Positions 11,783 to 23,906 of a DNA stretch of 50,746 nt are shown piece by piece. The position numbers were made by a program, and so were the translations under genes. Numbering within the stretch: position 1 is the first letter of the stretch; every line of letters starts with the position of its first letter. The stretch is from NCBI GenBank assembly GCA_026713835.1, contig JAPONP010000088.1, positions 1 to 50,746 of the forward strand, in the 5' to 3' direction. This stretch comes from Bacteriovoracales bacterium. GTDB lineage: Bacteria; Bdellovibrionota; Bacteriovoracia; Bacteriovoracales; Bacteriovoracaceae. Under the pieces are notes generated by a model, which was not told the DNA's origin, did not search any database, and saw nothing but the letters and a program-made list of their open reading frames with translations.

Positions 11783-13006
11783 TCAAACGGCCAATATCTT
11801 GAGGGCCTCTCGGATGCCCTTGGCCAATTGCTCGATCTCTTCGACCGTATTGTACATGGCCAAGGAGGCCCGGGTGGTGGAATCGGCCCCAAACCTTTTG
11901 AGCAAGGGCCAAGTGCAATGGTGTCCCGTCCTTACGGCCAGTCCCTTTTGCCCTAAAATCATGCCCAAATCCTGGGCGTGGGCCCCTTCGATGACGAAGG
12001 TAAAGAGCGGCACCCTTTGGGAGGCCTCCCCCAAAAGATGCAATCCGGAAATCCCCTTCAAAAGCTCGAGTCCACAGATTGTAAGCTCCTCTTCGTGGGC
12101 CATCACCCCCTCAAAATCCAAGGACTCAAGATAGCGGATCGCCGCTCCCAATCCTATGGAGCCCGCAATATGGGGAGTTCCCGCTTCAAACTTATAGGGA
12201 ATCGGAGCATAGGTCGTCTCGGCAAAATCCACCTGATCCACCATATCTCCACCTCCCAAAAAGGGGGGCATACGTTCCAAGAGTTCCTTTTTCCCATAGA
12301 GAACCCCAAGGCCCGTGGGGCCAAAGACCTTATGGGAGGAAAACACATAAAAATCCACACCCAAATCCCTGACATCCACACGAAGATGGGGGATCCCCTG
12401 GGCCCCATCCACAATGACGAGGGCCTTGGAGTTTTTTTTGACGAGAGAGACGATTTCTCCTACGGGATTGATCGTTCCCAAGGTATTGGAGACGTGGGGC
12501 AAGACCACGAGTTTCGTTTTTTTGGACAGGAGGGAGGTCAGGGCCGGCATCTCCAACTCCCCCCGATCACTTACGGGGATGACCTTGAGGACGACTCCTT
12601 TTCTTTCTCGAAGAAGTTGCCAGGGAACGATATTGGAATGATGGTCGCTTACGGTGAGCAATATCTCATCTTCGGGCCCAAGAAGGGATCCATAGGAGTG
12701 GGCCAAGAGGTTCAGTCCTGCGGTGGTTCCCGAAGTCAAAATGATTTCATCAGAGCTTGAGGCATTGATCCGGCTTTGCACGAGACTTCTCGTCTTTTCG
12801 TATTCGCTCGTGGCCTTCTTGGCCGGACCGTGAAGGGCGCGATGAACGTTGGCCGAATAAGAACAGTAATAGTCGCTCAAGGCCTCAATAACGGCCTTGG
12901 GTTTAAGGGTGGTGGCCCCGTTATCCAAGTAAACGAGAGGGGAGCCTTCAAAACCCTTGGCGATCATGGGAAAGTCGCGACGAATTTTTTTGACGGAAAA
13001 ACTCAT
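11783..13006 (-). CDS. sufS: Cysteine desulfurase SufS (class V aminotransferase, group II)
   Basis: 407 aa with the PLP-lysine motif FSSHKVFGPTG and the active-site loop RTGHHCTWPL. Located in a sufBCDS array. Confidence 0.9.
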   Translation of the reverse strand: MSFSVKKIRRDFPMIAKGFEGSPLVYLDNGATTLKPKAVIEALSDYYCSYSANVHRALHGPAKKATSEYEKTRSLVQSRINASSSDEIILTSGTTAGLNLLAHSYGSLLGPEDEILLTVSDHHSNIVPWQLLRERKGVVLKVIPVSDRGELEMPALTSLLSKKTKLVVLPHVSNTLGTINPVGEIVSLVKKNSKALVIVDGAQGIPHLRVDVRDLGVDFYVFSSHKVFGPTGLGVLYGKKELLERMPPFLGGGDMVDQVDFAETTYAPIPYKFEAGTPHIAGSIGLGAAIRYLESLDFEGVMAHEEELTICGLELLKGISGLHLLGEASQRVPLFTFVIEGAHAQDLGMILGQKGLAVRTGHHCTWPLLKRFGADSTTRASLAMYNTVEEIEQLAKGIREALKILAV

Positions 13007-14295
13007 GGGCCTTCTTCCCCATCCCCTATTTTTTCGAGGATGGATCGCTCCAAATAATCCGCACTCAACCTGTGGAGGGATTCATTTTCGATGGGAAAAA
13101 GGGTCTCCTCGCAAAACCCCCGGGCCAAAAACCTCTTGGCCTTGGATTCATCAAATCCCCTGGAGCGTAGATAAAAGAGTTGCTCCCCATCCATCTGACC
13201 TATGGTGGTTCCGTGGGTGCATTTGACATCACAATGACCTATTTCGAGGACGGGCCTTGAATCGACCCTTGCCGTATCCGATAACAAGATATTGTTGTTG
13301 AGTTGGGAAGACTCTATATCCGCTTGGTCTTTTCCCACCACGATGGTTCCCTGAAAGAAGGCATGGGAATGATGATTCAAAAGCCCCTTATAGAGTTGTC
13401 TTGACGATGTTTTTGGAGCTTTGTGATCGATCAAAGAGACGTGGGAAGAGTCCTCATTTGTATCGTGGACGTAAAGTCCCCCTAGGGAAACGTGGGCCCC
13501 TTCTCCCAAAAGCTCCACTCGAAGATCGTTTCGCAAAAAACTTCCCCCCAAGGCCAAGGCCGCATTGCCGTAGCGGGCCTCCTTATGAATCTGTGCCAAA
13601 ACCTTTGAAAAGGGCATAAGACCCTTTCGACTCTTAAAAATCCGAACGTGATCCAGATGGGCCCCTTGCCCCAAGGTGATTAGGGTGTGGGCATTGTAGA
13701 GGGCCGAACCCAAATCCTCTGTGGAAGAGGTGAACTCGAACAAATGGGCCTTGGACTTCTCACGGGCATGGACGATCAGGAGGGGATGGGCCATGGTTCC
13801 CTCAAAGTTTTTATCCATGAAATGATAGATTCCTAGAGGCCTTTCCCCCCTCTCTTCTATCTCCAAGCGGTAGGCTTCACGGCAATAGGTCAAGGCGAGA
13901 TCCGTAAAACAATCCTCACCTTGGAGTTGCCTCGTTAAAGGATCGAAGTCTCTTTCCTCTTTTAAGGGAAAGAATCGATACCCGGGGCCCAAGGTACTTA
14001 GGGTTTTATCCCAATGTCCGTTGTAAAAGACGATCCTTTGATCCAAAAGATCCACAGGGGGAGTTCCGGGGAATCTTTCCCCTTCGCTTTTCCAGGCATA
14101 AGATCCCGTAAGGCCCTTGAGGGAGGTGTATTTCCAGGCCTCATCTTTTCGTCCGGGAAGCCCCTTATCGGCAAACCCTTTGGCCCCAAGGGAGCGAAGG
14201 GCATGGAGGGAATCGGGCCCGGTTTGGCCCAAGGCTTTATAGGGGGCCAAGAGAGCTTCCAATGCATCCCCATCATTCATGCCCGTACGACCCAA
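13003..14295 (-). CDS. sufD: Fe-S cluster assembly protein SufD
   Basis: 430 aa with a SufB/D-type C-terminal beta-helix region. Located between sufC and sufS and overlaps both neighbours. Confidence 0.85.
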
Positions 14296-15041
14296 TCATA
14301 ACCCTTGCTCTCAAGCTCTAAGGCCAAAGACGAATCTCCCGTCTTGACGATAAGACCATCCGAGATAACGTGGACAAAATCCGGGGTGATGTAATTGAGC
14401 AAGCGCTGGTAATGGGTGACCAAAACGATGGCATTGTGTTGGGCCCGCAAGGAGTTGATCCCCTTGGCCACGATCTTTAAGGCATCGATATCAAGGCCCG
14501 AGTCCGTTTCATCGAGAAAGGCCAATCTTGGAGCGAGGACGGCCATTTGCAAAATTTCATTTTTCTTTTTTTCCCCGCCGCTAAAGCCCTCGTTAAGGGA
14601 ACGCTTCAAAAAGCTCCCATCCATTTCGAGAAGGTCTAGTTTTTCCCGAAGGTATTGGTCGAAGTCATAGGGGTCCATTTCTTCAAGACCTTGGGCCTTG
14701 CAAACCTCGTTAAAGGCCGTTCTTAAAAAGTTTTCATTGCTCACTCCCGGAATTTCCACAGGGTATTGAAGACCTAAAAAAATCCCCGCACGGGCCCTCT
14801 CATCCGGCTCCCAGTCCAAAAGGCCCACCTTTTTCCCGTCCACCTCGTAATCGATTTGCCCTTTGGTGACGTGGTAATCGGGATGCCCCGCCACGGCTTT
14901 GGCCAAGGTGCTCTTGCCGGAACCGTTGGGCCCCATGAGAGCATGGACTTCCCCCCTTTTCACCTCAAGGGAAACTCCCTTCAGGATGGAGGCCTCTTCA
15001 GGGCCTTCGGGGGAAACGTGGAGATCGGTAATACTCAACAT
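14277..15041 (-). CDS. sufC: Fe-S cluster assembly ATPase SufC
   Basis: 254 aa with Walker [10 protein letters not shown], signature [11 protein letters not shown] and Walker [12 protein letters not shown]. Confidence 0.93.
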
Positions 15042-15059
15042 ACTCGATGGCCCTCCCCT

Positions 15060-16493
15060 TTATCCTACGGAATGTTCAAGTTTCATTTCGAGAAGTTTAA
15101 CGGCTTCTTCGCTAAACTCTAAGGGGAGTTTCTTGAAGACCTCTTGGCAAAAACCATTGATCATAAGCCCCACCGTTTTTTCCATATCCATTCCTCGGGA
15201 ACGACAATAAAAAATTTGGTCTTCGCCGATCTTTGTGGTGGAGGCCTCATGTTCCACCTTGGCCGTTTTGTTCCCCACCTCGATGCTGGGGAATGTATTG
15301 GCCCGGCAACGATCTCCAATGAGCATACTATCGCATTGGGTGTAATTTTTGGCCCCATGGGCCCCCGGCATGACCTTGACGAGACCCCGATAGCTATTGA
15401 CGGACTCCTCCGCACTGATACCTTTGGAGATAATCGTACTCTTCGTTCCCTTTCCCACATGGATCATCTTCGTCCCCGTATCGGCTTGCATACGGTTATT
15501 GGTCAAGGCCACGGAGTAAAAAGACCCTCGGGAGTTTTCGCCAACGAGGTGACAGCTGGGGTACTTCCAAGTGATGGCACTCCCAGCCTCCACTTGAGTC
15601 CAGCTAATAGAACTATTTTCCCCTAGGCAATGGCCTCTTTTGGTCACGAAATTATAGATCCCCCCCTTGCCCTTTTCATCTCCCGCATACCAATTTTGAA
15701 CGGTGCTGTAGTTGATGGTCGCATCCTTTAGGGCGACGAGTTCCACGACGGCTGCATGGAGTTGGTTTTCATCTCGCTGGGGGGCCGTACAGCCCTCGAG
15801 ATAATTGACAAAGGAGCCTTCGTCGGCGATCAAAAGGGTGCGCTCAAATTGACCCGTCTCGGCTGCATTGATGCGAAAATAGGTGGAAAGATCCAAAGGA
15901 CAACGAACCCCTTTGGGGATATAGCAAAAGGAGCCGTCCGTAAAAACCGCTGAGTTTAAGGCCGCAAAATAATTATCTCTTCTTGGGACGACGGTGCCCA
16001 AGTACTTACGCACCAGTTCCGGGGGCATTTCGATGGCCTCGGCCATGGAACAAAAGATGATGCCAAATTTGTCCAACTCCTCCTGATGGGTCGTCCCAAG
16101 GCTTATGCTATCGAAAACCGCATCCACGGCCACTCCCGCCAAACGCTTTCTTTCCAAGAGGGGAATCCCCAATCGATCGAAGGTGGCCAGGAGTTCCGGG
16201 TCCACTTCGTCCATACTCTTGTACTTGGGTTTTTTGGACTTGGGGCGAGCATAAAAAGAGATTTCCCCGTAGTCGATGGATCCTATGTCCAGGGCGGCCC
16301 AACGGGGTTCGTCCATCTTTTTCCAGGTCTCGTAGGCCTTAAGACGCCAATCCAAAAGCCAGGTCGGCTCCTTTCTCTTTTCGCTAATAAGGCCTACGAT
16401 CCTTTCATCGAGTCCCTTGGGGAACTCTTCCATTTCAATATCGGTCACGAAACCGTATTTGTACTTTTCCTTGACTTTGCTTTTAAAGCTCAC
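15060..16493 (-). CDS. sufB: Fe-S cluster assembly protein SufB
   Basis: 477 aa with highly SufB-like sequence (YGFVTDIE..., FYCRSRGM...). GTG start preceded by GAGG. Confidence 0.93.
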
Positions 16494-18866: not shown

Positions 18867-19682
18867 TCATATCTTGCCCCCGTTGACCCCGAAACGAATC
18901 CTAAAGGGACGAAAATGCCATTCCATGAGGAGGGCCCAAGCGATCATGGCCGTGCAAAAGAGTTGCCCCAGGGAAAGAGGGCCTAAGACCGGCCCCCATT
19001 GGGGGTCGGGGGCACGAAAAAAACCCACGATCAATCGACCCACACCGTAGGCAAAGAGGAATAAAATGGACTGATGTCCTTTGAGATAGAGGTATTTTTT
19101 TTGGCCGTAGAGAAGGATGAAAAGAAGGAGTCCTTCCACCAAGGCTCCGTAGAGTTGCGAGGGATGCCTCGGGGCCTCGTCCAAAGCCTTGGGGAAAATG
19201 ACCGCCCAAGGAACTCGAGTAATTTTGCCCACGAGTTCTCCATTGATAAAATTTCCAATTCTTCCCAGCATAAGCCCTAGGGGAGCGAGAGTGGCCACCA
19301 TATCCGTAAAATGCAGAGGAGAGATTTTGAGGAGGCGGGCCTGGAAAACGACGATCGCGACGATTCCCACAAGGGCCCCGTGAAAACTCATTCCCCCCGC
19401 CCAAATTTTGGGGATCATCTCGGGATTCTCCATAAAATAGCGGGGATGGTAGATCAAGATGTAAAAGACTCGACTTCCCAGAAATAAGGCCAACCAAGCG
19501 GGCCAGCACATTTTGACAAAATGACCCCTCGAGATATTCCCGTAACCTCGCCCGATAAGGGCCTGCCCCATGTAAAAGATCCAAAGAGAGCCCAGTAAAT
19601 AGAAAAGCCAATACCAATGAAAATCCAATCCGAAAAGATGAAAGGCAACGGAGTCCAATCGATGGATGGCATACCTTTCCAT
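18867..19682 (-). CDS. lgt: Prolipoprotein diacylglyceryl transferase
   Basis: 271 aa polytopic protein with Lgt motifs GGMSFHGALVG and GRIGNFINGELVGK. Confidence 0.9.
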   Translation of the reverse strand: MERYAIHRLDSVAFHLFGLDFHWYWLFYLLGSLWIFYMGQALIGRGYGNISRGHFVKMCWPAWLALFLGSRVFYILIYHPRYFMENPEMIPKIWAGGMSFHGALVGIVAIVVFQARLLKISPLHFTDMVATLAPLGLMLGRIGNFINGELVGKITRVPWAVIFPKALDEAPRHPSQLYGALVEGLLLFILLYGQKKYLYLKGHQSILFLFAYGVGRLIVGFFRAPDPQWGPVLGPLSLGQLFCTAMIAWALLMEWHFRPFRIRFGVNGGKI

Positions 19683-19703: not shown

Positions 19704-20303
19704 TTATTTTTCGAGGACGATATCGAGCCTGACGTCCACTTCACTCCCTATGACCGTTTTGCCCACGATACCCTTAAATTTCTTCCATAGGTTTTTTTCC
19801 AAAGGACGATTCCAAGTCACTCCAAAATCGTCTTTGTTGATTTTGGTCAAGGCCTTAAAACGTCCGGGCCCCACTCTCTTGACATCCAGGGATACGTCCC
19901 TGGTTTTTCCCTTGAGGGTGAGTTTTCCCGGGAGCTTAAAACGATCCTCTATTTTGACTTTCCCGGGGCCTTGTCGAAACTTCATCACGGCGTTTTCGGA
20001 TTTTTCCACATCAAAAAAATCCGCACTTCTCAAATGATCGTCCCTCTTTTGTTTTCCCGTGTTGATACTGCCCACGGCGATATCGGCCGTCACCCCCGAC
20101 ATCATGGAGCCTTTACCGATGTTGACGGAACCGCTGAATCGATCAAAGTTTCCCTCAACGGTCGCTCCGATTTTATACTTGACGATTTCAAATCCCACGC
20201 GAGATTTTTTGGCATCGATCATCCGGCGGGCCGCATGGGCGGGATCGGAAAAAAAGGTGAGGGGGAAAGAAAGGAAAAGGGCGACGATCGGTAAAGCTTT
20301 CAT
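19704..20303 (-). CDS. YceI-family periplasmic protein
   Basis: 199 aa with a signal peptide ending AHA. Contains the YceI-like core SRVGFEIVKYKIGATVEGNFDRFSG. Its ATG overlaps the DUF2063 gene stop (ATGA). Confidence 0.8.
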   Translation of the reverse strand: MKALPIVALFLSFPLTFFSDPAHAARRMIDAKKSRVGFEIVKYKIGATVEGNFDRFSGSVNIGKGSMMSGVTADIAVGSINTGKQKRDDHLRSADFFDVEKSENAVMKFRQGPGKVKIEDRFKLPGKLTLKGKTRDVSLDVKRVGPGRFKALTKINKDDFGVTWNRPLEKNLWKKFKGIVGKTVIGSEVDVRLDIVLEK

Positions 20304-21061
20304 GGGGTTCTCCTATAAAAAATTGATTGTTTTTCTAAAAACGCTATTTTCTCTCGAAACTCCGATTTCGTAAACCGGACCCTTTCTCCCAAAATCTTTT
20401 GGACCGCAAGGTGAAAGGTTCTCTCATTTTGCCCCTCGCTAGGGCCCGTGGACAGGGCCTCATAGAGGGCCACATGGAAGATGTCACAAAGGGTCATCAC
20501 ACAATTTCCCGTCTTCTCATCCCTTGCGATCACGAGGATATTGGATTTTGGAGAAGGGCGTCCACGGAGAGGTGCGAAACCGTTTTCCCTCTCCCAATGA
20601 AAAATCCATCCGGCGATATCGAAGCGAAGTTCTAAAAGGACGTGGGCCTCATTGAGAATGTAGAGAGGGTCCCCCTGCCCACCGCGTCCCCGCTCGGCCC
20701 AAGCCTTGGGGGAACCTCGGTGACTATAGACCACATATTCGCCCCATTCATACCTGGCCAAATCCACGAGATCTTCCGAGACCAATCGGTTTTTTTCCAA
20801 ATAATCCGGAAAGTGCCGGGCCAAGTGGTTCAATTCCCAGGCGTAGGGGGGATACTCGCGAAAATAACCTTGGGCCCACTCATCCCAGGGGCATGGGTGA
20901 CATTCATCCAAACGAGTATAGACCTTCCCTAGAATCTCCCTATAATGATCCCGAACAAAGCCCCGGTAGAGTTCGCTCACCTTGGGGGAAAGACCCAAAT
21001 CCGCTTCTTGCCCTTCATAGAGGAGCTTTTTCCAACCGGAAAGATAATTTTTAAGCTCCAT
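20300..21061 (-). CDS. DUF2063-family protein, candidate RiPP recognition/partner subunit for the adjacent MNIO (MbnC/BufC/HvfC-like role)
   Basis: About 253 aa. The N-terminal region (YRGFVRDHYREILGKVYTRL...YFREYPPYAWELNHLARHFPDYL) follows the DUF2063 pattern. Its start overlaps the DUF692 stop (TGATG, or TTGA if the TTG at 21064 is used). Confidence 0.75.
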   Translation of the reverse strand: MELKNYLSGWKKLLYEGQEADLGLSPKVSELYRGFVRDHYREILGKVYTRLDECHPCPWDEWAQGYFREYPPYAWELNHLARHFPDYLEKNRLVSEDLVDLARYEWGEYVVYSHRGSPKAWAERGRGGQGDPLYILNEAHVLLELRFDIAGWIFHWERENGFAPLRGRPSPKSNILVIARDEKTGNCVMTLCDIFHVALYEALSTGPSEGQNERTFHLAVQKILGERVRFTKSEFREKIAFLEKQSIFYRRTP

Positions 21062-21969
21062 CAAGACGAAACCCCCGGAAAAAGTTTTTCAAGAACCCCC
21101 TTGGCCCTCACCACCTGTGCATCCAATGTCTCAAAAGGCGGCAGGTTATTGTCCCATTCGATCAAGGTGTTGATGGGACGCCCCGCTTCTTTCAAATACC
21201 ATTCGTAGAGTTCCCACACCTCCTCACAGACGGCCGAACCGTGGGTATCGATGACGAAATCCTGTCTCTGTTCATGGCCGGCCAAATGGATTTGAATCAC
21301 CCGATCACTTGGAAGACGGGTTAAAAAAGCCTTGGCCTTATGGCCCAAATTTTTTTCGTTCACATAAACGTTATTGATATCGAGGAGAAGATAACAAGAG
21401 GTTTCTGCGAGCAAACGGGTGATAAATTCCGATTCCTCCATGGTATGGTGGCGGGATTCCCCGTAATAGGTGATATTCTCTATGGCAAAAGGACGGTCGA
21501 AAAAACGTTGAATCCATCGGATTTTGTGGATCGTTTTCTCCAGAGAATCTTCGGTTTTGAGAATGGGGAGAAGGTCGTGGTAGTGATGCTTGAGAGAAGA
21601 GGAGATGCAAAGGTGGTCGCTAAACCAACGGGCTTCCGTGAAGTCCAAAAGTTCCCTTAAAGCCTCGCAGTAATCCGGGGGGACATCTTCACAGGAGCCA
21701 AGGGAAAGCCCCAAGCCATGGCAAACCAAGGGGTACTTTCCCTTGAGATTCGCGATGGCCCGGCGAGGTTTTCCCCCGTAGTCCATAAAGTTTTCACTGA
21801 TCAGCTCAAACCAATCGATGTGGTGGGAGGTCTCAAAAATGCCCCTCTCGTGTTCTAGGCGTAGGCCTGCCCCCACACCTAAAAATGAACGGGGATCAGC
21901 CGCAACTTCCCTTTCCGCATTTTCCACAGGAACCCTTTTTTCCCTTCTTGTCTTTTCCGCATTTCCCAC
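21061..21969 (-). CDS. DUF692 / multinuclear non-heme iron oxidase (MNIO, MbnB-TglH-BufB-HvfB family)
   Basis: TIM-barrel DUF692 pattern: GVGAGLRLEH, WFELISENF, CHGLGLSLGS, FSDHLC, HDLLP, AIENITYY, LLLDINNVYVNEKN, HLAGH, IDTHG, TLIEWD. The start is GTG at 21969 or 21927, both inside the 3' end of the precursor ORF. Confidence 0.88.
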   Translation of the reverse strand: MGNAEKTRREKRVPVENAEREVAADPRSFLGVGAGLRLEHERGIFETSHHIDWFELISENFMDYGGKPRRAIANLKGKYPLVCHGLGLSLGSCEDVPPDYCEALRELLDFTEARWFSDHLCISSSLKHHYHDLLPILKTEDSLEKTIHKIRWIQRFFDRPFAIENITYYGESRHHTMEESEFITRLLAETSCYLLLDINNVYVNEKNLGHKAKAFLTRLPSDRVIQIHLAGHEQRQDFVIDTHGSAVCEEVWELYEWYLKEAGRPINTLIEWDNNLPPFETLDAQVVRAKGVLEKLFPGVSS

Positions 21970-22108
21970 AGGAACCCTTTTTCATCTCTTTATGATCCCC
22001 GCTCTTCCAAGACTTTGGAGTCATATCGGCACAGCCGGTCATCCCGACGACCACGGCCCCCGTCAAAAAGGCCCTTTTGAGCAAATCTTTTGTCGCTTTC
22101 GTTTCCAT
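21896..22108 (-). CDS. Candidate RiPP precursor: 70-aa exported Cys/Gly/Lys-rich peptide (METKATKDLLKRAFLTGAVVVGMTGC-ADMTPKSWKSGDHKEMKKGSCGKCGKDKKGKKGSCGKCGKGSCG)
   Basis: The ATG at 22108 is preceded by AAGGAGGG with a 6-nt spacer. It has an N-terminal signal peptide with a lipobox-like MTGC and a core with five CG dipeptides. It lies immediately upstream of, and overlaps, the DUF692 gene. The listed 83-aa ORF (to 22147) is an upstream extension without an SD. Confidence 0.7.
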   Translation of the reverse strand: METKATKDLLKRAFLTGAVVVGMTGCADMTPKSWKSGDHKEMKKGSCGKCGKDKKGKKGSCGKCGKGSCG

Positions 22109-22226
22109 GGTGTTCCCTCCTTCTTTTAGATTAAGATCGACATTCACTTTTAAAACTCATATCTAAAGCATCCTAATCACCCGAAACGAAAATAGCAAAT
22201 TAAAAAAAATGTTATGGAGCGAACGA

Positions 22227-23906
22227 TCACCTGGTCAATTTTTTATAGACGATTCGATGGGGACGATCGGCTTCATCTCCTAGGCGACGACGAAGATCCT
22301 CTTCGTATTGAGAGAAATTGCCATCGAACCAAACCGCTCGGGAATGGCCTTCAAAGGCGAGAATATGGGTGGCGATGCGGTCGAGAAAGTAGCGGTCGTG
22401 GGAAATCACCACGGCACATCCCGGAAATTCCATAAGGGCGTTTTCGAGGGCCTGAAGGGTATTGACATCCAGATCGTTGGTGGGCTCATCGAGAAGAAGA
22501 AGATTCCCTCCCCCCAAAAGGGTTTTGGCCAAATGGGCCCTGGTCTTTTCTCCACCGGAAAACTCCTTGACCTTCTTTTTTTGGGTGTCTCCCGTAAAAC
22601 CAAACTTGGAGATATAGGCCCGCACGTTCACGTCCCTTCCCCCTACGGAAACCACGTCGAGATCCCCTCCAATCTCTTGAATGAGGGTTTTTTCTCCATC
22701 CATGGAGCGAGTTTGATCCACATGGGAAATTTGAACCGTCTCCCCCGTTTGAAAGGTTCCCTCATCCGGCTCCAATTCCCCTACGATCATCTTAAAAAGC
22801 GTCGTCTTCCCGGCCCCGTTGGGCCCGATCACCCCCACGATCCCTCCGGGAGGAAGCCCGAAGGAGAGATCTTCAAAGAGAAGTTTTTCCCCAAAGCCCT
22901 TCTTGATCCCGGAAGCCTTGACCACGAGGTTCCCCAAACGCGGGCCCGGGGGAATGGCCAATTCACTGACCTCCCGGTATTTTTCCTTTTGCTCCCGATA
23001 AATCCTGTCGTAATGATCGATTCTCGCCTTGGATTTGGCGTGACGGGCCTTGGGAGTGGAACGAATCCACTCCAATTCCTGGGCCAACCACTTTTGCCGC
23101 TTGGACTCTTGTTTTTCCTCTTTGGCCAAACGCTTGCGCTTTTGATCCAACCACGAGGTATAATTGCCCTCCCAAGGAACCCCGTGCCCTCGATCGAGTT
23201 CCAGTATCCAGCCGGCCACATTGTCGAGAAAATAACGGTCGTGGGTAATGGCGATCACCGTTCCTTTGTAGTGTTGAAGGTGACGCTCAAGCCATAAGAC
23301 GGTTTGGGCATCCAGGTGGTTGGTGGGCTCATCCAAGAGAAGAACGTCGGGCTCTTGTAAGAGCAATCGACAAAGGGCGACCCGCCTTCGCTCTCCTCCC
23401 GAAAGATCATCCACCACGGTTTCTTCGGGAGGACAGCGAAGAGAATCCATGGCCAGTTCCAAACGGGAATCCAAATCCCAAGCCCCACAGGCATCCAACT
23501 CGTCCTGAAGTTTGGCCTGACGATCCAAAAGATCGTTCATGGCCTTATCGTCCGTGACGCTCTCAAATTCTGCGTTGATCTTTTCAAATTCATTCAAGAG
23601 ATCCACCACCTCTTGGGCCCCCTCCCGCACCGTCTCCTTGACCGTCTTGCCGGGAGTAAGACTCGGCTCCTGGGGAAGATGACCTACGGAAATTCCCTTG
23701 CTCCGATCCACCTTCCCCAAATAATCCCCGTCGAGTCCTGCGATGATGCCAAGAAGGGTCGATTTTCCGGCCCCGTTAAGACCCAAAACTCCGATCTTGG
23801 CCCCGTAGAAAAAGGAAAGGGAGATGTCCTTGAGAACGTGTTTGCGTCCGGGGTAAACCTTACCGACCCCCGACATGGAAAAGATGATTTGCCGATCCGT
23901 ATTCAA
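22227..23906 (-). CDS. ettA: Energy-dependent translational throttle protein EttA (ABC-F)
   Basis: 559 aa with two ABC cassettes (GLNGAGKST / GPNGAGKTT, LSGGERRRV / FSGGEKTRA) and the EttA-like N-terminus IIFSMSGVGKVYPGRKHVLKDISLSFFYGAKIGVLG. Confidence 0.92.
   Translation of the reverse strand: MNTDRQIIFSMSGVGKVYPGRKHVLKDISLSFFYGAKIGVLGLNGAGKSTLLGIIAGLDGDYLGKVDRSKGISVGHLPQEPSLTPGKTVKETVREGAQEVVDLLNEFEKINAEFESVTDDKAMNDLLDRQAKLQDELDACGAWDLDSRLELAMDSLRCPPEETVVDDLSGGERRRVALCRLLLQEPDVLLLDEPTNHLDAQTVLWLERHLQHYKGTVIAITHDRYFLDNVAGWILELDRGHGVPWEGNYTSWLDQKRKRLAKEEKQESKRQKWLAQELEWIRSTPKARHAKSKARIDHYDRIYREQKEKYREVSELAIPPGPRLGNLVVKASGIKKGFGEKLLFEDLSFGLPPGGIVGVIGPNGAGKTTLFKMIVGELEPDEGTFQTGETVQISHVDQTRSMDGEKTLIQEIGGDLDVVSVGGRDVNVRAYISKFGFTGDTQKKKVKEFSGGEKTRAHLAKTLLGGGNLLLLDEPTNDLDVNTLQALENALMEFPGCAVVISHDRYFLDRIATHILAFEGHSRAVWFDGNFSQYEEDLRRRLGDEADRPHRIVYKKLTR

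Follow-up and report, generated by a model that had tools for sequence, protein, structure and literature searches.

The type of peptide considered here, a small, cysteine-rich and secreted product that is modified by an enzyme, is already known, and by analogy it probably binds copper. In Haemophilus influenzae, HvfB and HvfC (HvfBC) turn each repeat cysteine of the precursor HvfA into a Cu(I)-binding heterocycle (-4 Da), a modification for which the signal peptide is dispensable (PMC11252979). Repeat numbers are variable across the Buf_EGKCG/oxazolin family (PMC12452194), which is Sec-dependent, with HvfA being processed by signal peptidase I (SPase I) (PMC11252979, PMC12452194). For NedA of Neisseria dentiae, triacylation was demonstrated along with modification by an enzyme of the MNIO family (PMC13056109), signal peptidase II (SPII) signals were predicted with SignalP 6 in subsets of oxazolins and bufferins (PMC13056109), and among Buf2 bufferins ~16% have been predicted to be lipoproteins (PMC12452194). 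Lipidated oxazolins are thus not new, having already been published as NedA and the diacylglycerol-carrying ribosomally synthesized and post-translationally modified peptides (DAG-RiPPs). Here, a locus on contig JAPONP010000088.1 of a Bacteriovoracales bacterium (assembly GCA_026713835.1) was compared with these systems; "the window" denotes the whole 50,746-nt stretch that was analyzed. Our overall reading, held at a probability of roughly 0.7, is that a 70-aa open reading frame (ORF) in the window is an oxazolin/bufferin-type RiPP precursor of a Bdellovibrionota-like subfamily, possibly lipidated, whose MNIO maturase is likely translated from GTG 21876. The genes that carry this reading are as follows.

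21896..22108, minus strand: precursor peptide gene, 70 aa plus stop (METKATKDLLKRAFLTGAVVVGMTGCADMTPKSWKSGDHKEMKKGSCGKCGKDKKGKKGSCGKCGKGSCG), from ATG 22108 to TGA 21896
22115..22122, minus strand: Shine-Dalgarno (SD) sequence AAGGAGGG, followed by a 6-nt spacer (AACACC) and the precursor ATG 22108
21061..21876, minus strand: MNIO (DUF692 / MbnB_TglH_ChrH) maturase gene, BufB/HvfB-like, PF05114 at 300.6 bits
20300..21064, minus strand: DUF2063/HvfC-like partner gene, its start overlapping the MNIO stop by 4 nt

The locus resembles the HvfA/HvfB/HvfC system in its small precursor, presumably secreted by way of a predicted signal peptide at the N-terminus, with a Lys/Gly-rich core of repeated x-G-x-C-G, in its variable repeat number, and in a precursor gene that adjoins genes for an MNIO and a DUF2063 partner. 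It differs from HvfA in that the window peptide has no exact EGKCG, carries C-G-K-C instead of C-G-E-G-K-C and is built on a 14-residue rather than a 17-residue unit; its subfamily has an extra D-[LIMV]-T-P-x-S-W motif and a YceI protein that replaces DoxX, and the window MNIO scores nearer to BufB than to HvfB, below both cutoffs. Like lipo-NedA, a DAG-RiPP, it combines a CG-motif precursor, modified by an MNIO in the cytoplasm, with a signal peptide that ends in a lipobox and would be followed by the action of Lgt, LspA and Lnt, all of which is predicted for the window. NedA, however, has the canonical EGKCG and demonstrated lipidation, whereas lipidation in the window is predicted from a pattern, with a lipobox that has Met at -3 and whose Cys arose by substitution in this lineage alone, the rest of the subfamily lacking it. 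Bufferins (BufA1/DUF2282 and BufA2/Buf_6/12Cys, with BufB and BufC) share the DUF2063 partner and a Sec-type signal peptide, predicted for the window precursor, with the locus, and BufB is the best NCBIfam match of its MNIO. In contrast to bufferins, the window precursor contains no DUF2282 or 6/12-Cys domain, being a low-complexity repeat and not a folded domain, and its operon has neither DoxX nor sigma/anti-sigma genes.

The original prediction had contrasted a strong SD before ATG 22108 with a listed start at 22147 that had none, and this held: duplex energies with the anti-SD were -12.2 kcal/mol for AAGGAGGG and -2.2 kcal/mol for GTG 22147, the start of the longest ORF, which thus has no SD. 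Precursors of relatives start at a Met homologous to ATG 22108, and strong SDs (-8.2 to -13.3 kcal/mol) precede all ten related precursor genes. Judged from these features of the sequence, ATG 22108 is the genuine start and is efficiently translated. The 70-aa ORF is identical to a public database protein (P0001), and family profiles match the window peptide at E = 2e-14 and 2e-11. A sigma-70-like promoter match (window 22209-22238, minus strand; TTGACC-18-TAACAT, 9/12) lies ~100 nt 5′ of the precursor ATG, after an ABC-F gene; such matches are no more numerous in this region than in shuffles. An antisense ORF of 103 aa (window 21818-22129, plus strand) spans the precursor and its repeats and is most probably an artefact that stems from their low-complexity composition.

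Searched alone against 5.8 billion proteins, the peptide retrieved only itself, and relatives were reached via MNIO neighbours and then with a profile of the leader. MNIO relatives shared 63-69% identity with the window enzyme on ENA metagenome contigs and 49-53% in metagenome-assembled genomes (MAGs) of Halobacteriovoraceae, Bacteriovoracaceae and Oligoflexia; an MNIO scan of genome contigs found nothing closer than 49% (an Oligoflexia MAG). Directly 5′ of these 49-69% identical MNIO genes, a homologous small ORF stood in 10/10 related loci, encoding a common leader (K-D-L-V-K-R-A-L-x-G-A, then a hydrophobic stretch) and C-G-x-G-x-C-G motifs with Lys-rich linkers. The leader profile retrieved ~28 proteins from a word-indexed database and, among 1.84 billion, 82 cluster representatives at E <= 0.001; ~35 of the latter contain DxTPxSW and come from Bdellovibrionota-like MAGs, while the weaker matches are classical EGKCG peptides. 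Several related precursors match NCBIfam HvfA models weakly, among them L003 at E = 6e-11 and L008, which exceeds the cutoff of KCGExKCG_twice (NF050137; 28.7 vs 19.5). The small ORFs next to MNIO genes in related loci bear out the claim that the 70-aa ORF encodes the precursor on which the adjacent MNIO acts. Because the precursor-MNIO-DUF2063 gene order (from hidden Markov model matches) comes together with homologous small ORFs in ten loci and with the HvfA-model matches of relatives, the window peptide can be assigned by homology as a divergent relative of the Buf_EGKCG/oxazolin (HvfA-like) precursor family, not a model-level member. The enzyme itself matches PF05114 well above the cutoff and PDB 3BWW at E = 1e-37. 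The gene at 20300..21064 is, by its profile matches, the DUF2063 (HvfC/BufC, PME-type 1) partner gene: its family profile matches PDB 3DEE (NGO1945, DUF2063) at E = 1.8e-4, and six of nine family members match PF09836.

Several scores speak against this assignment. The window peptide gave no match to the HvfA/EGKCG models (NF050188, NF050137) even at E <= 10, and its cysteines are spaced as C-G-K-C, with two residues between them, a spacing for which no chemistry has been shown. The MNIO stays below the equivalog cutoffs of both BufB (286.7, cutoff 310) and HvfB (236.4, cutoff 360) in NCBIfam, and the partner protein reaches 25.5 bits for PF09836 (cutoff 27.2) and 29.6 bits for HvfC, under the NCBIfam equivalog cutoff. 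That the peptide matches no curated RiPP precursor model would also suit an unmodified, metallothionein-like small Cys-rich lipoprotein encoded beside an MNIO that acts on some other substrate. This is very unlikely given that all ten related loci have a small ORF with conserved CG motifs directly 5′ of the MNIO gene, that the operon holds no other candidate substrate, and that relatives match HvfA models.

The leader and the segment that follows it contain the features on which the predicted export route depends.

22031..22108, minus strand: signal-like leader, residues 1-26 (METKATKDLLKRAFLTGAVVVGMTGC), with a charged n-region, the h-region AFLTGAVVVGM and the candidate lipobox M-T-G-C
22031..22033, minus strand: TGT (22033-22031) of Cys26 in the candidate lipobox, a match to PROSITE pattern PS51257
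22007..22027, minus strand: D-M-T-P-K-S-W, the window copy of the subfamily motif D-[LIMV]-T-P-x-S-W (alignments A1, A2)

The n-region has a net charge of +2, the hydrophobic stretch a mean Kyte-Doolittle hydropathy of 1.75 across 13 residues, and the c-region is made up of small residues; all three align with the leaders of relatives. The KRAFL and M-T-G-C elements noted in the original prediction are both present, and the relaxed lipobox proposed there agrees with PS51257, which is satisfied at Cys26 in the window and matched by none of the subfamily relatives; the Tat-like reading of the leader was not upheld. In relatives, the residue aligned with Cys26, two residues ahead of the D in DLTP, is Ala, Gly or Ser/another small residue, and would be a plausible -1 residue for SPase I. 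A further possible SPase I site, [AV]-x-[AG], lies 2-4 residues past the W in 24/28 relatives and is replaced by S-G-D, with Asp at -1, in the window. Lipidation at Cys26 is plausible and is favoured because of the PS51257 match, the lost [AV]-x-[AG] site, the precedent of NedA (PMC13056109) and the presence of lgt in the genome. Processing by Lgt and LspA at G25|C26, leaving a 45-residue lipopeptide, has somewhat better than even odds, and a change of a single residue that turned an SPase I-type into an SPII-type signal is the simplest reading and a plausible one.

The alternative is that the window peptide, like those of its relatives, is cut by SPase I, after Thr-Gly-Cys26 or elsewhere, and becomes a soluble periplasmic peptide in which Cys26 either is a neutral replacement or serves as an additional metal ligand. 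Four observations weigh on that side and against lipidation: the strict lipobox [LVI][ASTVI][GAS]C has no match in the window leader, since -3 is Met; none of the ~35 subfamily relatives has a Cys at this position, their Ala, Gly or Ser being suited to -1 of an SPase I site; the lipobox rests on one metagenome contig; and Thr-Gly-Cys complies with the -3/-1 rule of SPase I, which permits Thr at -3 and Cys at -1. Cys at -1 is nevertheless rare among SPase I sites, a Cys straight after [AGS] where an uncharged h-region ends is the hallmark of lipoproteins, the site past the W is gone in the window, and both oxazolins and bufferins with lipid anchors are documented (PMC13056109, PMC12452194), so that SPase I cleavage of the window peptide is possible but doubtful. 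Export through the twin-arginine translocation (Tat) pathway after cytoplasmic modification is far less credible, even though such post-modification export would in principle suit Tat, K-R-A-F-L resembles R-R-x-F-L-K, and one relative (L002) has a true R-R. Across relatives the position otherwise reads KR, KK, KT or QK or has no basic pair, no match to the TAT-signal model came up with E-values of up to 10 allowed, and published work describes the family as Sec-dependent, with HvfA processed by SPase I (PMC11252979, PMC12452194). KRAFL as a degenerate twin-arginine motif, and with it a Tat signal, was thus rejected.

Two metagenome scans for further members with a lipobox were uninformative: the exact back-translation of G-M-T-G-C-A-D-M-T-P gave 0 matches, and the looser pattern G-C-x-D-x-T-P-x-S-W gave at least 120 unrelated matches, none of them family-like among the matches listed. 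Lipoboxes (GLSC, LSAC, ATAC, LSSC) do occur in distant MNIO loci, namely in bufferin-type (DUF2282-like) precursors (L011, 1881-2165; L012, 2567-2953) and in classical EGKCG peptides (P0199, P0214), in line with published DAG-RiPP mining. The D-[LIMV]-T-P-x-S-W motif, which is previously undescribed, directly follows the hydrophobic leader segment; its D, T, P and W are invariant and its S nearly so (alignments A1 and A2). Besides the window, the precursors of L001-L010 and P0122-P0166 carry it. It is found in the Bdellovibrionota-like subfamily only and not in classical EGKCG/HvfA peptides, and it could be a recognition site for the partner protein or part of the signal c-region.

Past this motif, the core of the precursor is repetitive.

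21912..21995, minus strand: two tandem 42-nt units (21954-21995 and 21912-21953) found by repeat search, encoding KKGSCGKCGK twice

The core contains five Cys, every one of them before Gly, in K-G-S-C-G and C-G-K-C-G contexts. The two units are 79% identical and include a near-perfect part of 29 nt with one mismatch (21982-21954 vs 21940-21912), slightly longer than the ~27 nt first described for this 42-nt-period direct repeat. The longest such repeat in 1000 codon shuffles of the precursor ORF was 16 nt, which agrees with the proposed expansion by tandem duplication; the core, as its sequence is best read, arose through tandem duplication of the 42-nt unit. Tandem Repeats Finder did not report the repeat in the window region, where two copies are too few for it. 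The expected variability in core copy number was seen between related genomes, whose precursors range from 70 to 168 aa and from 3 to 13 Cys, with periods including 42, 57 and 129 nt across the family; in L003, a 57-nt unit is present in 5.8 copies that are 93% identical, and periods of both 57 and 129 nt are seen in L002. The MNIO scan of genome contigs, with its 49% ceiling, yielded no strain-level relatives in which repeats could be counted within the species.

Three in-frame GTG codons are candidates for the start of the MNIO gene.

21874..21876, minus strand: GTG, Val of G-V-G-A-G-L-R, 19 nt past the precursor stop, position 1 of the BufB profile
21925..21927, minus strand: GTG in repeat copy 2, with a 32-nt precursor overlap; start of the database gene call P0002 (288 aa)
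21967..21969, minus strand: GTG in repeat copy 1, start of the longest MNIO ORF, with 30 codons left before the motif

The original prediction had only the latter two, and read them as starts that the repeats supply, by AAGGG-N5-GTG in the -1 frame, inside the precursor core. AAGGG-TTCCT-GTG does occur at both 21969 and 21927 and in frame with the MNIO; the relation to the peptide frame is +1 (22108-21969 = 139), not -1. As a design feature, starts inside the repeats did not stand up to comparison with the ten related loci. In seven of them (L001, L004-L009), the MNIO gene starts at an ATG 4-8 codons 5′ of G-[VI]-G-x-G-L-R and 15-73 nt past the precursor stop, and an in-frame stop between the precursor stop and this ATG rules out a start within the precursor; in L002, the usual position holds a GTG. 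Nor is the frame relation between precursor and MNIO fixed: four relatives have both in the same frame, another four show a +1 offset, and one a +2 offset. On the long MNIO ORF, the BufB and Pfam profiles start at residues 31-32, at G-V-G-A-G-L-R, with the Val of GTG 21876 at position 1 of BufB and the preceding residue at position 1 of PF05114. In gene calls of homologues, 4-12 residues precede the motif in 89/116 cases and more than 20 in only 14/116, several of which are over-extended, and the deposited sequence of the H. somnus DUF692 chain 3BWW begins ~4 residues before it. GTG 21876 is favoured because of its profile position, the post-stop starts in 7/10 relatives, the varying frame relation, the short N-terminus of 3BWW and the 89/116 gene calls, and is given about even odds as the MNIO start.

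Translation from GTG 21927 or 21969, with overlaps of 32 or 74 nt, would couple the enzyme to its precursor and let each repeat add an in-frame start. Both sites have the AAGGG-N5-GTG arrangement, and their SD duplexes, at -4.5 to -5.3 kcal/mol, are slightly better than the -3.0 kcal/mol of GTG 21876. Other points likewise count against GTG 21876: it has no SD and lies within a predicted 13-bp hairpin; starting there would drop F-L-G, or the 4-5 residues that relatives keep before the motif; the window has CGT at the usual MNIO start position; GTG 21927 is the pick of the gene caller; and L003 and L010 have no canonical MNIO start at the usual place past the precursor stop, so that starts that overlap the precursor may be real in some members. 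The duplexes at the repeat sites are nonetheless weak beside those of the precursor (-12.2 kcal/mol) and the partner gene (-9.3 kcal/mol), and initiation there would compete with ribosomes elongating along a heavily translated ORF. AAGGG and GTG derive from Lys-Gly (AAA/AAG GGT) and Cys-Gly (TGT GGx) codons, which makes the motif automatic wherever K-G-S-C-G is encoded, and the two occurrences count as a single feature, which the duplication copied. An MNIO extended into the repeats would carry an N-terminus without homologue, and the sole mismatch of the two repeat copies (GGG/GGA) leaves the peptide unchanged but swaps Gly for Glu in the MNIO frame. Across this region it is the peptide frame that is conserved and not the MNIO frame, so that the refuting condition set in the original prediction turns out in favour of the peptide. 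Taken together, a start inside the repeats is doubtful: GTG 21927 is a tentative candidate, and GTG 21969 is improbable and the least likely of the three.

In L003 (4107-4154), the codon that corresponds to the GTG of L002 is GTT, with AAGGG-N7-ATT 7 codons ahead of the motif; L010 (2974-3006) offers either an ATG within the motif or, 7 codons ahead of it, a GTG that comes from the precursor's last TGT-GGA. Gene calls that run deep into precursor repeats were observed in L002 (4001-5182, 393 aa), L003 (4001-4969, 322 aa) and the window (21061-21927, 288 aa); because no stop codon interrupts the +1 frame of the repeats, these calls look like over-extensions and thus an annotation artefact. Under any of the starts, translational coupling of precursor and MNIO, by termination-reinitiation or by overlap, is plausible and is no special property of the repeats. 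Most MNIO genes in the related loci have SDs weaker than those of the precursors, which fits a high precursor:enzyme ratio. The boldest combination, in which the maturase is translated from GTGs made by Cys-Gly codons of the repeats, each 42-nt duplication adding substrate Cys together with an SD-like start, and in which the product is lipid-anchored with a C-x2-C motif, is a long shot; if true, both the amount of enzyme and its N-terminal isoforms would depend on core copy number, and the product, with its non-canonical C-x2-C motif, would be smaller than any lipid-anchored oxazolin known.

Between 22020 and 21850, the window mRNA is predicted to fold more stably than shuffles (z = -3.2). Predicted structures are the 13-bp hairpin over GTG 21876 (21884-21853, minus strand) and a 12-bp long-range stem (22004-21993 with 21898-21887, minus strand) that flanks both 42-nt repeats. 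Stable hairpins occur at the MNIO 5′ end in 7/11 loci including the window (z = -2.6 to -5.5 for individual loci). They are in differing registers, and RNAalifold found no consensus at the precursor/MNIO junction; a conserved RNA element at this junction was accordingly rejected.

The mechanism that we favour is drawn by analogy with HvfABC, BufABC and NedABC, apart from its translation step, which is read from the sequence. The precursor would be translated efficiently from ATG 22108 and the MNIO far less so, the latter probably relying on ribosomes that arrive from the precursor ORF. The MNIO, an iron enzyme, may act with its DUF2063 partner in the cytoplasm to oxidize the five x-G-[S/K]-C-G cysteines to 5-thiooxazole or oxazolone/thioamide groups, each at -4 Da and presumably binding Cu(I). 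The N-terminal signal sequence would then direct export by Sec. At the end of the h-region, the small residue of relatives most likely became Cys26 in this genome, to which Lgt is predicted to add diacylglycerol before LspA cuts in front of it; the outcome would be a 45-residue membrane-anchored lipopeptide, while the peptides of relatives are probably released by SPase I. Cu(I) would be bound at the membrane or in the periplasm, and repeat number and period appear to change freely within the family.

Downstream of the partner gene, the tightly packed operon continues with two further annotated genes and an SLT/LysM transglycosylase gene that follows lgt.

19704..20303, minus strand: YceI-like periplasmic protein, PF04264 at 114 bits, with a 4-nt overlap with the partner gene
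18867..19682, minus strand: Lgt (prolipoprotein diacylglyceryl transferase), TIGR00544 at 167 bits, above cutoff

YceI follows the partner gene in 7/9 related loci (L001, 5569-6132; L002, 5895-6464; L003, 5682-6254; L004, 4583-5155; L005, 4527-5105; L006, 4545-5115; L008, 4573-5160), in the slot where hvf/buf operons usually have DoxX. No DoxX was found in the window operon or in L001-L009, and a survey of MNIO clusters makes no mention of YceI (PMC12452194). The lgt gene occupies the same place in the four closest relatives of the window (L001, 6140-6931; L004, 5243-6040; L005, 5115-5930; L006, 5150-5941), whose precursors have no lipobox. Adjacency of lgt as evidence for lipidation was rejected on this ground, and its position is conserved synteny, not a functional link. 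Genes for SufB, SufC and SufD-like proteins of Fe-S cluster assembly lie a few kb downstream on the same strand (window 13003-16493, minus strand).

For annotation, the locus is a warning that MNIO calls extended into the open alternative frame of a precursor are not to be taken as gene overlap. With five Cys in 45 residues, the predicted product would be a compact substrate for probing the substrate tolerance of MNIO enzymes and the DAG-RiPP pathway. In this one genome, the change of one residue appears to have turned a secreted peptide into a lipid-anchored one that has a compressed C-G-K-C motif, within a subfamily that is set apart by its undescribed invariant D-L-T-P-x-S-W and by YceI in the place of DoxX. 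With this locus, the range of the oxazolin/bufferin metallophore family comes to include Bdellovibrionota-like bacteria.

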